Part shown: piece by piece, positions 292-7,758 of the stretch
How the letters are laid out: each line of letters opens with the position of its first letter
Numbering within the stretch: the stretch's first letter is position 1
Made by a program: the position numbers and the translations under genes
Origin: an uncultured archaeon
GTDB lineage: Archaea > Iainarchaeota > Iainarchaeia > Iainarchaeales > CSSED10-239
DNA length: 7,758 bases
Assembly (NCBI GenBank): GCA_964586355.1
Contig: CAZPGO010000042.1
Coordinates: forward strand, 1-7,758
Reading direction: 5' to 3'
Notes under the pieces: model-generated
What the model saw: only the letters and a program-made list of their open reading frames with translations
Databases searched by the model: none
What the model was told of the DNA's origin: nothing

Positions 292-912
292 ATGAATGAA
301 TTTAAATTTTCTATAAATTTTAGTATTTTGAGAGATGTCCCAATAAGTTTTATTATACATTCAAAAGATAATTTTCAAAATACTTCTTTTATATTAGAAA
401 ATTTGTTTACTAAAGTCTATAATCCATTGGAGATTGTTTTAGTGAACGATAGGTCCTTAAGTAAAGAATATTTTTCACAAATAGTTGATAAATATAAATT
501 TATAAATTTGATAGAGGCAAGTAGTATGTCGGAAAGCATAATTAATGGGGTTGAAAATTGTTCTAATAATTGGATAGTTTATATAAATTCAAATTTTAAA
601 CCTAATAATAGCGCCTGGTTAAGTGCTTTGTTTGGGTCTATGCAGAATCTAAAAGCCCAAGGAGTAAAACTGGTTGGTTCTTTTGTAGAAAATAATAATT
701 TTTTTAATCATTATAGAAACGAAAAAAATGATATTGTTTTAAAAGAGCACTTTTTGCCTTTTAATGTTGTTTTTTTTCACAAAGATCTTTTTAGGACTAT
801 AGGATTATTAGAAAGCACCGACAGTGTAGTGGAAATATCTGCTAGTATCTATAATAAAATGTCTAAGAGAAATTTTAAGCAAGCCATATCAAGAAATAGT
901 CTATTTATTTGA
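292..912 (+). CDS. GT2-like (GT-A fold) glycosyltransferase-like protein with a degenerate DXD motif
   Basis: 206-aa ORF. ISFIIHSKDN...LEIVLVNDRS...GVENCSNNWIVYINSNF follows the GT2 layout (vSviIp.yN ... EiivVDDgS ... N.g...a.g.yi.flDsDd). However DDGS is NDRS and the DXD position reads NSN (586-594). No clear SD. The start is only 14 nt from the divergent HNH start. Confidence 0.45.
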   Translation: MNEFKFSINFSILRDVPISFIIHSKDNFQNTSFILENLFTKVYNPLEIVLVNDRSLSKEYFSQIVDKYKFINLIEASSMSESIINGVENCSNNWIVYINSNFKPNNSAWLSALFGSMQNLKAQGVKLVGSFVENNNFFNHYRNEKNDIVLKEHFLPFNVVFFHKDLFRTIGLLESTDSVVEISASIYNKMSKRNFKQAISRNSLFI

Positions 913-1890: not shown

Positions 1891-3096
1891 ATGAATTCAA
1901 TATTTGTACAAATTGCCTCGTATAGAGATCCTGAATTAGTTCCCACCATTATCGATTTGTTATCTAAAGCAAAAAATCCGGATAGGATAAAAATTGGCGT
2001 AGTTAATCAGTATGCCAATGATGAATTTGATAATAACATTAATGATATTAAAGATAGAGTGCGTTTTTTAAATATTTACTATAAAGAGTCCAAGGGAACT
2101 TGTTGGGCCAGGAGCATGGCTCAAAAATTATATTCTGGTGAAGATTTTTCACTACAACTAGATTCTCACCACAGGTTTGAACAGGATTGGGATGAAACTA
2201 TTTTGGATGTTTATGACGATTTGAATGATGATAAAGCTATACTTACTACATATCCTGCACCTTATCAACCTACTTGGAACTATGATCAATATTCTAAAGA
2301 GGTTTATGTTTGTAGAATTAAAGGCTTTAGCGCAGATGGGAAAATAGAAGCATTTCCAGAAGTTTTTAAAGACTGGAAAACTTCTACCAAGCCAAGAAGA
2401 GCCGTCCATATAGCAGCCGGTTTTTTGTTTGGAAAAGGAGAGATAAACGATGTTCTTTATGATCCTAATCTTTATTTTACTGGCGAAGAGTTTTCTTTGG
2501 CTGTAAGGTATTTTACGAGTGGATACAATTTATATCATCCTAATAAGTTAATTTGTTATCATTATTATACACGAGAGAATCAACCAAAACATTGGGTTGA
2601 TCATAAAAATTGGTCTGAATACAATAGAATTGCAACAGAAAGATTGAATTGTTTGGTCGGTAGAAGTTCCACTTTTGATCTAGGTGTTTATGGATTGGGA
2701 AATAAAAGAACTTTAAATGATTGGAAAATTTATTCTGGTATAGATTTTTTAAGTAACATAATACACAAAGATACTAAAGATGGGTTGGAACCCCCATGTT
2801 CTAATTCTGATTGTGGTTGGGAAAAGGAAATGTTTTTTGACCATGTTCTTAGTTGGGATAGCTCTAAGGTTGAAAAGTGTAGCGATCCTAAGTTTTGGTC
2901 TTTTTTTGTAGTAGATCAAAACAAGGTGGCTTTAAACAGAGAGGACGTTACAGATATTGACATTCTTTCTGGAAAAACTTGCACTAAAAAGTTTAATTTT
3001 AATTATAGAGGAAACCCCACTCAGTTGTTGATTTGGCCTTATTCACATAGTAAAGGATGGTTGGGTAATGTTTACCTTCCACTTAAATTCTCATGA
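1891..3096 (+). CDS. Glycosyltransferase of the GlcNAc-transferase family (Gnt1 / Skp1-hydroxyproline GlcNAc-transferase-like, CAZy GT60-like), with an extra ~100-aa C-terminal region
   Basis: 401-aa ORF. IFVQIASYRDPELVPTIIDLLSKAKNPDRIKIGVVNQ, then KGTCWARSMAQKLYSGEDFSLQLDSHHRFEQDWDETIL. From memory this closely follows the signature of the Pfam 'Glycosyltransferase (GlcNAc)' family (IFVsiaSYRDpec..Tl.dlf.kA..P.ri.vGv..Q ... ARy.a.kLy.gE.y.lqiDSH.rF...WD). The stop overlaps the next start (ATGA at 3093-3096). Confidence 0.75.
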   Translation: MNSIFVQIASYRDPELVPTIIDLLSKAKNPDRIKIGVVNQYANDEFDNNINDIKDRVRFLNIYYKESKGTCWARSMAQKLYSGEDFSLQLDSHHRFEQDWDETILDVYDDLNDDKAILTTYPAPYQPTWNYDQYSKEVYVCRIKGFSADGKIEAFPEVFKDWKTSTKPRRAVHIAAGFLFGKGEINDVLYDPNLYFTGEEFSLAVRYFTSGYNLYHPNKLICYHYYTRENQPKHWVDHKNWSEYNRIATERLNCLVGRSSTFDLGVYGLGNKRTLNDWKIYSGIDFLSNIIHKDTKDGLEPPCSNSDCGWEKEMFFDHVLSWDSSKVEKCSDPKFWSFFVVDQNKVALNREDVTDIDILSGKTCTKKFNFNYRGNPTQLLIWPYSHSKGWLGNVYLPLKFS

Positions 3097-3716
3097 AAAA
3101 TTTTTTTAAAAAGTGTTATTATATAAACAGAAAGATTAGAGTTGATAGAAAAGAGATGTTTGAAAACCAACTAAAAAAGGTTGGTTTAATTGATTGGGTT
3201 GAAAGGTGTGAGGCAATTGATAAAGATGATGTGGGTGAAAGTGTTGCTCCTTCTAAAAGTGAAATCGCATGTGGTTCTAGCCACAGGAATATAATTGAAA
3301 TTGCAAAAAAGAATAATTTTGAAAATGTTTTAATTTTTGAAGATGATGCTGCTTTTCTAGACAATTTTCAGGAAATTATCAGCAACAGCTTGCAACAAAT
3401 AAAAGATATTGATTGGGATTTATTTTATTTAAGTTGTCGTTTATTTGATTCTAAGCTTGATTTTTTAAGTGAAAACATAATAAAAATAAAATCTTGTTAT
3501 TGCACTCATGCTTATTGTGTAAACCAAAAAGCTTATGATAGATATTTGGAATATGATCCATACAAACAACCTGTTGATGTTTTTTTATTAAATCAACCAT
3601 TTAAAAGAATTGGCTCTTATCCTCTCTGTGTTTCTGTTTATGCTAGTAATAGCGATATAATTAATGGTTATGCTAATTATGATAATATTTTTAAAGAGTC
3701 TTATGCTTTAAGATAG
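3093..3716 (+). CDS. Glycosyltransferase family 25 (LPS/LOS beta-1,4-galactosyltransferase / collagen galactosyltransferase family)
   Basis: 207-aa ORF. CYYINRKIRVDRKEMFENQLKKVGL (GT25 start: yvINL....dRr..m..ql) and SEIACGSSHRNIIEIAKKNNFENVLIFEDDAAFLDNF (GT25: gEiGC..SH..lw..........lIlEDD..f...f). Translationally coupled to the upstream GT by ATGA. Confidence 0.75.
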   Translation: MKNFFKKCYYINRKIRVDRKEMFENQLKKVGLIDWVERCEAIDKDDVGESVAPSKSEIACGSSHRNIIEIAKKNNFENVLIFEDDAAFLDNFQEIISNSLQQIKDIDWDLFYLSCRLFDSKLDFLSENIIKIKSCYCTHAYCVNQKAYDRYLEYDPYKQPVDVFLLNQPFKRIGSYPLCVSVYASNSDIINGYANYDNIFKESYALR

Positions 3717-6302
3717 TTAATCTTTGAATTCCAATATCATACTTCTTCCTCCTCGAGATTCTGAAAGGAATCTTGAAAATAAAAGGTCTTCTTTTATAGG
3801 ATCTATATCAGTTATTCCTAAACAATAACAGACAAGAGAACCGACTGCAGAGTTGTGTACCAAAAAAGAACTGGTTAGGTAGTTTGAGTTGTTTTCTACT
3901 TGAAAATCATAGACCTTGCTAACATCTTTCATGTATTCTATTTTTCTAATCTTTATTAAGATTCCTCCTTCTATTTTTTTAAAGAAATAGTTTTTTTTGG
4001 CATTTTTGCCTACCAACTCTTCTTTAATTGGAATATTGATCTTGTAACAAATAGATTTTTTTCCACTTCTTTTATCTAGTCTGTTTATAGAATTAAGAGA
4101 AGAAGGAACTTTTAATGATAAAAGTAAAGTTCTTACTTGTGAAGATAAATCAACAGAAACGGAATCAAAACTAATTTTGTTTTTTGCAAAGTGACCATCA
4201 GCAAGGAAATATCCTCTTAAAAAACACCATTTAAGGCGATCGTCCAGAGAAAAAACTATATCTGGCACATGCTTTGTTTGTGAAGTAAATTTATAATTAT
4301 TAAAAAGATCTTTAAATAAACAATAGATAAATCTACTGTTTATGTTTATTTGCTTAAGTTTTTTATTTTTTTTACTTGAAATAGAGTATTCTACGTGCAT
4401 TTTTTTTGCAAACTTTATGGCCAAATCAAGGCCAGTAAAGTCATCTTCATGAAAAGCCAACCCTATACTTCCTCTTCCGTCTGATCTTATCCACCCATCT
4501 CCCATGAACAATCCAACAACAGTCCAAAAAGTTTCATCATTAATTTTTATAAATCTTTTACATTTTTTGTTTCTTTTGACTTTTTTTGTTAGCGGATTAA
4601 TATAATCTTGAAAAACAAAATTTTTGTTAAATACTAAATTCTTATTATTACAATATTTAGCTAAATCTATATCTTCTATTTTGTTTTTATTGAGTTTAAT
4701 ATTTGGCACAAAAACCCAATCACCAATTCTTATTTGATCTGCACGAACCCACTCTAGCTTTCCTTGAGGTTCCTCAAATCTTTTTTTAGATTTTTTTGTA
4801 GAATCAGCCCAACTACTGTAGTTTTTAACTTCTTTGAATTTTTCAACCAAAACTTTATGGTCTTTTGTTAGCGAAACACCATTGTTGTCACCATAATAGC
4901 TAAAAATTGTTAAAATATCTTCTTTGCAAGAATACTCAAAAGTTTTTAATACTTTTTGTATTGTTCCATCTCTTGTAAAAACTTTGTCTCCAACTTTAAT
5001 TTCTGAAATAGGTTTGCAAGTGCCTCGATTAGTCAATATTTTAGTTTTTCCTTCTAGGCAACCTCGCCCTGGCCCAACTGCTTCACTTCCGTCTCCGCTT
5101 CCTAATATTATTGGACAGATTCTTCTTGCCTCATCTGTCATCATTTTTTGAATTAAAAAGTAGCTACTAAAACCTTTTCTAGTTATTAATGAGTATTCTT
5201 CTTTTATTCTTTCTAAGTATTTTTTATTTTTTGGAAGCATTCTTTTTGAGAATCCTATTTTTATTGCTTCCTTTAATTTTTCATCGCTATCTTCTATAGA
5301 TGGTAACTTTAAATTTCTATCAAATTCGACCCCTTTTGCCATTTCACAAACTTTAACAGTTGTTTTTTTGGCTTCACAAAAAACTTCATACGGAACTATA
5401 TCGGAGTACGATTCTAACCACTTTTCATTTAGTTCTTCTTCGCTCTTCATCCATAAATTTTCATCTTGTAATTCAAAAAAGTCTTTCATTGAATCTTTTT
5501 CTTTTTCTTCTTTTATCATTTTTAATGTTCTTTTAGTTTGTATCATCAACATCAATCTTTGATAATAACTATCTTCTTTGTTGCAGTAGTGGACATCTTG
5601 ACTTAGTATTATTGACAATCCATATTTTTCTTTTGCCTTAATTATAAATTTGTTGTATTCAAATTGCTTTTTAAAATCTAATAGCATTATTTCTAAATAA
5701 TAATTTTCTTTTCCAAACATGGAAATGTATTTTTCTATAGCTTGGTAGCCCGCTTCTTCTCCTCCTTTATCAAATGCACGCCCAACCTCACTGTTGTAAC
5801 AACAGCTAGTAAATATTATGCCTTCTTTGTGTTGCAAAAGTTGATCATAATTTACTCTTGGTTTTCTATAAAATCCTTTTGTCCATCCCCAACTCGTTAA
5901 TTTTACTAGGTTTTTATATCCTGTTGAATTTATTGCTATGGCTAATAAGTGAGGGCTTGCCCGAAACCTATCAGTCTCCTGTGGATTCAATTCTTTTGTG
6001 TAACCCTCCAACTCTGATTTATTATTGTATGGTATTTGCAATTCATTTACATATAGTTCTACTCCAAATATGGGACTCAATTTGTTTTTATCTTTGTGTT
6101 TATCGCATACCTTTTCGCATGCTTTTATTTGTCTTGGTATTGCTCCCATCATTCCATGATCTGATACTGTTAGAAATTTTTGATTTATTTCAATAGCTCT
6201 GTTTGCATATTCCTCCACTGTTCCGAATCCATCAAGTACAGAATAGTCGCTATGTAGATGGAGGTGTTCAAATCCGACTATTTCTAACTTTTTATTTGTC
6301 AT
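3717..6302 (-). CDS. dnaE: DNA polymerase III alpha subunit (DnaE-type), N-terminal PHP domain and start of palm only, interrupted by an intein; the ORF ends at the catalytic-aspartate motif
   Basis: 861-codon ORF. PHP motifs: [48 protein letters not shown]. GPGRG (res 410-414) plus [29 protein letters not shown] (res 818-846) rebuild the conserved DnaE motif GPGRGSaaGSLVaY.LgIT.vDP....LLFERFL once residues 415-817 are removed. After ...SESRGGRSM the ORF reads ILEFKD and stops (TAA, complement of 3717-3719). Other DnaE proteins have PDxDxDF here, followed by about 750 more residues. Confidence 0.85.
   Translation of the reverse strand: [861 protein letters not shown]
3852..5060 (-). mobile_element. 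Class-1 intein (403 aa) with an embedded double-motif LAGLIDADG homing endonuclease, inserted in dnaE
   Basis: Cys1 (TGC, complement of 5058-5060) follows GPGRG directly. N-terminal Hint region: [13 protein letters not shown]...[12 protein letters not shown]. Block B is TKDH (res 479-482, about 4857-4868). LAGLIDADG motifs are [11 protein letters not shown] (4488-4520) and [11 protein letters not shown] (4188-4220). Block F is [13 protein letters not shown]. The terminal residues are LVHN (His-Asn at 3852-3857), followed by the +1 Ser (3849-3851). Confidence 0.85.
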
Positions 6303-6374
6303 ATTTTTGATTTAAACCTTATGGGGTTTTGGCTTATTTAATTGAGGTTTGTACGTAAGTTTGACTTTTTGTGA

Positions 6375-6403
6375 AGTATAATATTTTGTTTTATTTTTTG
6401 CAA
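6375..6403 (-). promoter_or_regulatory. Candidate sigma70-type promoter for dnaE
   Basis: On the minus strand: TTGCAA (6398-6403), a 17-nt spacer, then TATACT (complement of 6375-6380), about 70 nt upstream of the dnaE ATG at 6302. It lies in the only sizeable intergenic region (6303-6440). Such matches are frequent by chance in AT-rich DNA. Confidence 0.3.
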
Positions 6404-6440
6404 CTCTTTTTTTTGTTTAATTTTTAATTAAAATAGATAT

Positions 6441-6959
6441 ATGAAAATAAAGTGCTACTTGGCAGGACCCATAGACAGATCTCCAGATTTAGGAATTACC
6501 TGGAGAAAAAAAATATCGAAGTTTTTAAACAAAATAAACATAGAAGTAAATGACCCTATGTTAAAAAGCACAGAGAAAGGTCGGGAGGACTTGGAATCAA
6601 GAAAACTTAGACATGATTGTAAGAAGCGAAAAGATTACAATCTGTTAAGAGCCATAATGAAAGATATAAGAAGAGAAGATTTGAAGCTAGTAAGACAGAG
6701 TGATATTGTCATAGTTAATATTGACACAAGTATTTATAGTTGCGGTACATTAGAAGAGGTTTTTTTGGCTAAAAAACTTAATAAAAAAATATTCATGCGT
6801 GTTAAACAAGGAAAAATAAACACTCCTGATTGGTTGTTTGCTATAGTTGATCATGAATTTATTTTTTCTACTTGGAAAGAGTTACAAAATTTTTTAGAAA
6901 AAAAACTTCTGTTTGACAAACAAAAAATCAAAACTAGAATAGGCTCAATTGGGAGTTAA
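6441..6959 (+). CDS. Nucleoside 2-deoxyribosyltransferase-like protein (NDT / DNPH1-Rcl / YtoQ-like superfamily)
   Basis: 172-aa ORF. N-terminal KCYLAGPID (family hallmark: .yLAGP.). The later block SDIVIVNIDTSIYSCGTLEEVFLAKKLNKKIF matches the family pattern (sD.vva.ld....s.Gt..E.g.A...gkpv), with a Glu (E105/E106) at the expected nucleophile position. No obvious SD. Confidence 0.6.
   Translation: MKIKCYLAGPIDRSPDLGITWRKKISKFLNKINIEVNDPMLKSTEKGREDLESRKLRHDCKKRKDYNLLRAIMKDIRREDLKLVRQSDIVIVNIDTSIYSCGTLEEVFLAKKLNKKIFMRVKQGKINTPDWLFAIVDHEFIFSTWKELQNFLEKKLLFDKQKIKTRIGSIGS
6951..6955 (+). promoter_or_regulatory. Shine-Dalgarno site for the 6962 ORF
   Basis: GGGAG lies 6 nt upstream of the ATG at 6962-6964, inside the last codons of the upstream gene (stop TAA at 6957-6959). 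This indicates translational coupling. Confidence 0.5.
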
Positions 6960-7698: not shown

Positions 7699-7758
7699 TT
7701 ATGACATATAAAGGCCTACAATTTTACCTGTGGCATCATCAATAGCACCATGTAGGGA
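7699..7758 (-). CDS. 3' end (19 codons plus stop) of an ORF entering from the right edge; the motif resembles the first-Asp region of DDE/rve transposase-integrases
   Basis: The complement of 7702-7758 reads SLHGAIDDATGKIVGLYMS, then TAA (7699-7701). h.H.aIDD.t/s.(r/g).i.g is the pattern around the first catalytic Asp of rve-type DDE enzymes (IS481/ISNCY-like). In those proteins about 150-250 further residues follow, so the stop here would mean a truncated or frameshifted copy. Only 19 residues are visible. Confidence 0.25.
   Translation of the reverse strand, partial: SLHGAIDDATGKIVGLYMS

Follow-up and report, generated by a model that had tools for sequence, protein, structure and literature searches.

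A phage DnaE polymerase encoded by two separate half-genes that share a palm segment, divided within the catalytic palm without a split intein

Split polymerase genes are known, and for DnaE, the alpha subunit of DNA polymerase III, we know of the intein-ligated form only. The family-B polymerase of Methanothermobacter is reportedly encoded by two genes without an intein, and gp43A and gp43B of Aeromonas T4-like phages are likewise said to constitute an intein-less split polymerase. In both cases the polypeptides are thought to assemble non-covalently, and to our knowledge no overlapping duplicated segment has been reported for either. Here, a complete 7758-bp contig (CAZPGO010000042.1; the whole of this stretch is hereafter called the window) was analyzed, which carries on its minus strand, at 3717-6302, a dnaE gene that ends ahead of the polymerase core. 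In our reading, to which we assign a probability of about 85%, this is the N-terminal gene (N-half) of a natural two-gene DnaE of an uncultured AT-rich tailed phage, the remainder being encoded by a separate gene (C-half) and the two halves likely associating non-covalently. It resembles the Methanothermobacter and gp43A/gp43B systems in that the catalytic subunit consists of two polypeptides, while it differs from them in polymerase family and fold.

A divided DnaE is known from cyanobacteria, whose two dnaE parts are joined by a split intein, Ssp/Npu DnaE (Wu et al., 1998; Caspi et al., 2003, both as cited in PMC2677866). The likeness lies in the alpha subunit being encoded by two distant genes; the cyanobacterial break, however, is found elsewhere in the protein, and each half bears a split-intein part through which the two are trans-spliced into one chain. 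The phage break, in contrast, is free of intein parts, and the sole intein of the window is of the cis-splicing type and lies inside the N-half. A second group concerns fractured genes, in which a split intein and a free-standing homing endonuclease gene occur between the pieces, including three DnaE loci of the Global Ocean Sampling data (Dassa et al., 2009, PMC2677866). These are also environmental phage-like DnaE sequences, and exactly their layout recurs in the C-half fingers domain of some relatives of the phage described here (L004/L005 and L013/L014). The break between N-half and C-half, however, involves neither split-intein halves nor the defining endonuclease gene, and the intervening genes vary. 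Finally, contiguous DnaE proteins, such as the 1179-aa LR756511.1 of an uncultured huge phage and those of E. coli, T. aquaticus and M. tuberculosis (DnaE1; PDB 2HNH, 2HPI, 5LEW), have the same domains in the same order, namely PHP, Pol-beta-like palm (with the GS motif and three Asp), thumb, fingers and HhH, and LR756511.1 shares 52% identity with the N-half and 40% with the C-half. Compared with them, the chain is here broken between positions 98 and 99 of PF07733, at about E. coli residues 396-400 and directly before D401/D403, and its parts are encoded by separate genes, kilobases apart and sometimes on opposite strands, with a duplicated palm segment as their overlap. In the literature searched, no description of a two-gene phage DnaE without an intein was found, the results being confined to the split-intein DnaE of cyanobacteria, to fractured genes and to general surveys of DnaE, such absence being no proof. 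What is of interest is the architecture, i.e., an intein-less, overlapping and evolutionarily stable fission that separates the GS motif from the DxD strand within the catalytic palm. Annotation pipelines call both pieces 'DNA polymerase III alpha', while surveys drop 'fragments without an intact active site' (PMC3919608), and thus a two-gene class is easily missed or taken for pseudogenes.

The N-half gene encodes an 861-aa precursor (458 aa once spliced) comprising a PHP domain, the first part of the palm and one intein. The N-extein (aa 1-414; 6302-5061, minus strand) holds the PHP domain and then the palm helices up to GPGRG. The intein (aa 415-817, 403 aa, CLEGK...FLVHN; 5060-3852) lies between G and S of the GPGRGS nucleotide-binding motif, and the C-extein (44 codons; 3851-3720) provides the palm helix after the GS motif and a family-specific tail, which is the natural C-terminus of the N-half. 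Pfam places the PHP domain (PF02811, E=2.6e-36) at residues 13-206 of the 861-aa open reading frame (ORF), and its metal-ligand motifs (HLHLHS, SDHG, ELY, HLLA, TSCCY and DVHY) are invariant in an alignment of 48 N-halves (A2). The match to PF07733 (DNA_pol3_alpha) ends at profile position 98 of 260, with residues 818-850 corresponding to positions 66-98, and the segment with the GS motif aligns to residues 384-458 of Taq DnaE. The intein is matched by Intein_splicing, LAGLIDADG_3 and Hint. Most of what the first-pass annotation had described at this site was borne out. The ORF and Pfam boundaries place the dnaE stop 44 codons past the intein and just before PDxDxD, the 135 nt at 3717-3851 being exactly 44 codons and the TAA stop (3719-3717). 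In-silico splicing between GPGRG and C and between HN and S restores a clean GPGRGS palm motif in a 458-aa protein, and the other two minus-strand frames close soon after the intein (first stops at 3820 and 3810). It had also been stated that no minus-strand ORF elsewhere in the window resembles the rest of DnaE; no DnaE domain was detected by Pfam in any other window ORF and no PD.D.D[FY] motif in its six frames. Its headline that the whole polymerase core is missing stands for the window and fails for the phage genome: the window is one complete contig, and therefore the absence holds for that contig only and is an effect of its extent. The three catalytic Asp (D401, D403 and D555 in E. coli) are, like thumb, fingers and HhH, absent from the N-half polypeptide and are carried by the product of a separate gene.

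All relatives with enough flanking DNA were found to carry such a C-half gene within 10 kb. In the closest relative (L009, 83% identity), whose contig also encodes ribosomal protein S21 as well as T4-type sheath and gp15 domains, an 852-aa C-half lies 3.6 kb away on the opposite strand. In L007 a 917-aa C-half is located 5.8 kb downstream on the same strand, in L004/L005 the C-part begins 2.5 kb downstream and is itself in two pieces, and in L105, of a lineage with 35% identity, a 768-aa C-half follows 1 kb downstream. The genes between N-half and C-half differ from lineage to lineage. The two families are complementary in Pfam terms, with N-halves covering PF07733 positions 2-98 and C-halves positions 98/100-259 followed by fingers and HHH_6; the phage's own C-half (P0126/P0241) matches PF17657 and PF14579. 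Members of the C-half family, which is as large as the N-half family, have 821-951 aa and none has a PHP domain; an alignment of 51 C-halves shows no variation at P103, D104, D106 and D108 of the PDxDxD strand or at D263, which corresponds to E. coli D555. Furthermore, the same longest-contig sizes (434573, 419905, 226313, 98320, 48374, 30455, 30095 and 19571) occur in the match lists of both halves, indicating that N-half and C-half share genomes. Of the three readings offered in the first-pass annotation, a split dnaE with its second half encoded elsewhere is thus the one that held, given C-halves 1-6 kb away in relatives and the phage's own C-half, scaffolded and present in the same three metagenomes as the window gene.

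This own C-half is an 869-aa protein encoded outside the window (P0126/P0241, one 90% cluster) and 72% identical to the C-half of L009. It occurs in samples 3300077317, 3300077522 and 3300077563, the three that hold the window N-half, and also in 3300077564; the GC content is 28.7% vs. 29.1% for the window. The four C-half contigs all break off within a divergent ORF of at least about 290 aa, at a distance of about 650 bp upstream of the C-half gene, in an 18-nt tandem repeat, GAAGACATGGAAGATGAT, that encodes an acidic (EDMEDD)n tail. L001, a contig with the N-half, begins in the same repeat and in the same frame and continues with ...DDFLGK and a stop, and L001 and the C-half contig L016 come from one sample. 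This link was seen by tblastx and by reading the contig ends, and was missed by blastn with its default low-complexity filter. In a contiguous relative (L102, 22.7-kb contig), the minus strand carries a piece of the C-half (79-80% aa identity), after which come first the acidic-repeat ORF on the plus strand and then homologues of three L001 ORFs, of 256, 198 and 167 aa (72-78% aa identity). The start codons of N-half and C-half would accordingly lie about 8.1 kb apart, plus the tandem repeat, and be divergently transcribed; in window terms, the C-half would be situated on the plus strand about 6.7 kb past position 7758. For an exact 45-mer adjacent to the repeat there were 0 matches in metagenome_contigs, a collection without these samples. 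The repeat itself was observed at L001 1-230 and at the left ends of L012, L015, L016 and L017, and short-read assemblies all break there. In L016 only about 10 nt separate the start codon of the C-half from that of the divergent acidic-repeat ORF (649/660), so that either the promoters lie within the adjacent coding sequences or the starts are misannotated.

The two halves are not simply adjacent parts of one chain. The C-half starts with an extension of about 85-100 residues, which is a shortened, degenerate copy of the palm segment ending the N-half (pattern KRLxWExxEI...SYFL...NQNNLLvxxLLxIv...D..P) and is devoid of the strand and GPGRGS loop of that segment. Residues R43, W46, E47, E50, N73, N75 and N76 of the extension are invariant, and its version in L105 is closer to canonical DnaE (NPNGLVLPFVLGITTVDPIK). 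When the halves were compared by tblastn with the contiguous 1179-aa DnaE of LR756511.1, their matches overlapped by about 309 nt, and on Streptomyces phage DnaEs (H13 vs. H35) by about 260 nt. In the full-length profile phrog_405, positions 40-439 are matched by the N-half and 340-1054 by the C-half. Mapped onto E. coli DnaE, the N-half extends as far as residue 396 and the C-half already starts at 368. Alignment of the extension with the N-half alignment by hhalign was colinear (E=1.7e-5). Such an overlap may have originated by duplication with complementary loss. The idea that the N-half tail (S-I-x-L-E-F) is a degenerate PDxDxDF strand was also considered and found unsupported, the profile alignments ending at 'NPER'.

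In the mechanism that we propose, the N-half precursor would lose its intein by ordinary cis-splicing, which would restore the GPGRGS loop and yield a 458-aa protein with a PHP domain of the proofreading type and the first part of a Pol-beta-like palm. The second gene, about 8.1 kb plus the repeat upstream and on the opposite strand, would supply the 869-aa C-half. This protein begins with the degenerate palm-N helices, which lack the GS loop, continues with the PDIDTD strand and the third catalytic Asp, and then has thumb, fingers, HhH and an OB-like C-terminus. Because there are no split-intein parts at the break, the two proteins would not be ligated; most likely they pair non-covalently, and the GS motif of the N-half and the catalytic aspartates of the C-half would form one active site. 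AlphaFold2 (AF2) models of the isolated halves were good overall, with a predicted local distance difference test (pLDDT) score of 82 for an N-half (P0001, 83% identical to the window protein) and 81 for the C-half. Confidence was lowest at N-half residues 415-417 (the GS loop) and 443-460 (the tail, disordered in the monomer) and, for the C-half, across its palm sheet (99-109, 135-139, 212-218 and 230-262), a pattern in the models that is only suggestive and would fit a palm incomplete in each single chain. Both models match DnaE structures in Foldseek, while the docking site of the C-half extension was not resolvable from these searches.

Several points weigh against this interpretation. The join between N-half and C-half crosses the tandem repeat and is based on the repeat, the frame, the common sample and synteny, with no spanning read. 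The overlap similarity is weak between single sequences (BLASTP E=0.005) and significant by profile methods only. The C-half's own palm-N helices are well predicted (pLDDT about 90), and the protein could fold and act alone. Finally, mutual binding of the halves and a composite site are what we infer. One alternative is that of two independent enzymes, in which the C-half would be a self-sufficient PHP-less polymerase whose own palm-N copy completes the fold, with no composite site, and the N-half a separate PHP exonuclease or accessory subunit with a palm fragment serving only as a docking or vestigial module. Its assets are that the extension is conserved, with the seven invariant residues given above, that it is confidently helical in AF2 and that all three catalytic Asp are in the C-half. 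However, the GPGRGS motif is invariant in the 48 N-halves (R416-G417-S418), and the helix that follows it and the tail, with its invariant R450-G451-G452, are the most conserved part of the gene. The C-half copy has neither that strand nor the loop, and the palm sheet is the worst-predicted region of the isolated C-half model. The GS motif, moreover, reportedly binds the triphosphate of the incoming deoxynucleotide in Pol-beta-like nucleotidyltransferases. We therefore consider two independent enzymes unlikely, though deserving of some weight.

Taken further, the two-gene reading would mean that a widespread class of phage replicative polymerases is an obligate heterodimer, one chain contributing the dNTP-binding GS loop together with the PHP proofreader and the other the three catalytic Asp, with the chains held together by two complementary, partly degenerate palm modules of about 100 residues left from a duplication; we see the chances of this as evenly balanced. 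If it is true, the presence of the halves in different transcription units could allow replicase assembly to be timed or regulated. Equally, a composite active site would offer a natural experiment on the two-chain assembly of the Pol-beta-like nucleotidyltransferase fold, on the coupling of PHP proofreading to synthesis and on gene fission by duplication and complementary loss.

A different possibility is post-translational covalent joining of the halves, for which an atypical split intein would be needed whose N-fragment is very short. Split inteins are frequent in this gene family, the C-half being fractured by one in L004 and L013, and the C-half has approximately 85 additional N-terminal residues. 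However, the N-half tail has 6-17 residues (ILEFKD and the stop in the window gene) and contains neither a nucleophile Cys/Ser1 nor intein blocks, so that no N-fragment ends the N-half. On the other side, the C-half extension is homologous to the DnaE palm and not to Hint, no HN-C/S/T junction precedes PDIDTD, and no intein or Hint domain was detected by Pfam in the unfractured C-halves. Covalent joining is thus very improbable. Likewise, the combination of split intein and free-standing endonuclease that characterizes fractured genes is absent from the break between N-half and C-half and present at a second break in L004 and L013. This second break, by a split intein in the fingers domain of the C-half, was observed at L004 13919-17974, in L005 and at L013/L014 759-4762, and in the twice-broken form the pieces are separated by a free-standing DUF7487/TnsA-N-like endonuclease ORF (437 + 337 + 565 aa). 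The DnaE of these phages is therefore in three pieces.

Truncation of dnaE by insertion or recombination of the glycosyltransferase cassette, which would make the gene a pseudogene and was another reading of the first-pass annotation, is barely credible. What speaks for it is the neighbourhood. A convergent gene encoding a GT25 glycosyltransferase (3093-3716, plus strand; PF01755 E=9e-11; phrog_2835 glucosyltransferase), in our view a neighbour only, meets the dnaE stop without a spacer, its TAG (3714-3716) abutting the TAA, so that base 3716 is the end of its stop codon as had been noted. Furthermore, the glycosyltransferase block lies on the other side in L009, which indicates a rearrangement nearby. 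The end of the N-half, however, is not peculiar to this neighbourhood. A search with the spliced 458-aa protein was carried out and its best 120 matches (62-88% identity) were taken; 116 of them have 408-490 aa, the other four being intein-bearing or partial, and none of the 120 contains a polymerase core. They share the C-terminus ...SRF[LM]SE[SA]RGGRS[MIL]xLEF[KSN] with at most a short extra tail. One of them (P0002) ends in ...RSMILEFKD exactly like the window gene, yet its downstream genes differ; the proposed comparison of the junction with relatives thus yielded a common C-terminus beside different genes. Against L009 and L004, the proportion of synonymous differences (pS) is 0.63-0.75, near saturation, and that of nonsynonymous differences (pN) 0.13-0.18 for the whole gene, while in the last 44 codons pN is 0.045-0.049 and pS 0.63-0.71; the ratio of nonsynonymous to synonymous substitution rates (dN/dS) is 0.02-0.10. 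Judged by these values, the 44 C-extein codons are under strong purifying selection. Rather than the relaxed selection and lineage-specific end of a pseudogene, an end point shared down to 35-42% identity was found, and the intein is intact and the partner C-half gene present.

The third earlier reading, a retained stand-alone PHP protein, is not favored either, as the N-half contains PF07733 positions 2-98 with the invariant GPGRGS palm segment, and a C-half was found wherever the flank sufficed. The supposition that homologues in this lineage naturally end here was correct, but they form one half of a two-gene polymerase and not a PHP-only family. An assembly chimera at 3716/3717, also raised at first and suggested by the abrupt gene end alone, has practically no chance, since the end is family-wide and the identical 861-aa protein and junction recur, besides the 7758-bp contig, in three further Joint Genome Institute (JGI) assemblies from three samples (L001, of 12.9 kb, L002 and L003). 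An exact 48-mer over the stop junction had 0 matches in IMG/VR, a collection without these samples. The window gene is an intact first half, and not a truncation, a chimera or a PHP-only protein.

The 403-aa intein was, as first noted, apparently intact and is predicted from its motifs to be a class-1 intein with a LAGLIDADG homing endonuclease. It has Cys1 (CLEGK...), block B TKDH, LFMGDG and YFLADG (LAGLIDADG), a terminal HN (LVHN) and Ser at +1, with Pfam scores of E=7e-11 for both PF14890 and PF14528. Allelic mini-inteins occupy the same site in P0004, P0035, P0059 and P0260, while the site is empty in about 116 of the best 120 homologues. This is the usual pattern of a mobile intein in a conserved motif and is independent of the gene fission. 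Further inteins were observed in P0005 and P0260 at a second site within the PHP domain (...FIVHN at its end), P0260 having two inteins in one N-half.

Concerning distribution, clustering at 50% reduced the family of at least 62% identity to one representative and intein-bearing variants. The next relatives (52-57% identity), P0257 (...SRFLSEARDDFPDADLDF...) and LR756511.1, have a contiguous DnaE, and N-half-only proteins reappear at 31-42% identity (P0266, P0267 and P0379) with a shared ...S[PE]xRGG[RK]xM... tail. Among PHROGs, phrog_7513 and phrog_13169 are N-half-sized families and phrog_11165 and phrog_12219 C-part families. GTDB genomes contained only ordinary cellular DnaE as relatives (identity of 34% or less), offering no clue to the host, and no deposited phage was closer than LR756511.1. 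The fission is kept from 88% to about 35% identity, and the uncultured phage contigs reach more than 400 kb. From this distribution across lineages and databases it follows that the two-gene arrangement is viral, old and common in metagenomes, with no cultured representative. Two cultured phages of the Bacillus group, Bacillus phage Edson and Rossellomorea phage phiT1, were considered as cases of the same arrangement and rejected, their dnaE being interrupted at other points or by other means. In Edson (L020 5920-7344), the dnaE ORF runs through ...NPERNAMPDVDTD and then diverges, possibly due to an intron, and in phiT1 (L021 3986-7268) two coding sequences are annotated, one of 573 and one of 469 aa, which are separated by a 49-aa ORF.

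Regarding the surroundings of the N-half gene, a divergent intergenic region of 138 bp (6303-6440) lies upstream of it and is the presumed location of the promoter. Scanning the surroundings of the gene for promoters and terminators revealed nothing that exceeded chance (18 promoter-like sites vs. 15.3 expected). Divergently transcribed from the N-half is a nucleoside 2-deoxyribosyltransferase-like gene (6441-6959, plus strand; PF05014 E=2e-7), which may have a role in nucleotide salvage or DNA modification. A glycosyltransferase cluster surrounds the N-half (window 292-912, 1891-3096 and 3093-3716; L001 260-889) and includes a GT2, an N-acetylglucosamine (GlcNAc) transferase (PF11397) and two GT25 paralogues. 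In L009 the block of GT2 and GlcNAc-transferase genes is on the opposite side of the N-half gene compared with the window, and therefore a local inversion or rearrangement has occurred. In addition, the phage genome encodes translation initiation factor IF3 (PF05198 and PF00707) and ribosomal protein S21 (L001 4081-4635, minus strand; L012 6102-6335; L013 13753-13941), and a relative additionally encodes CsrA, PhoH and a 'Volactin' domain protein.

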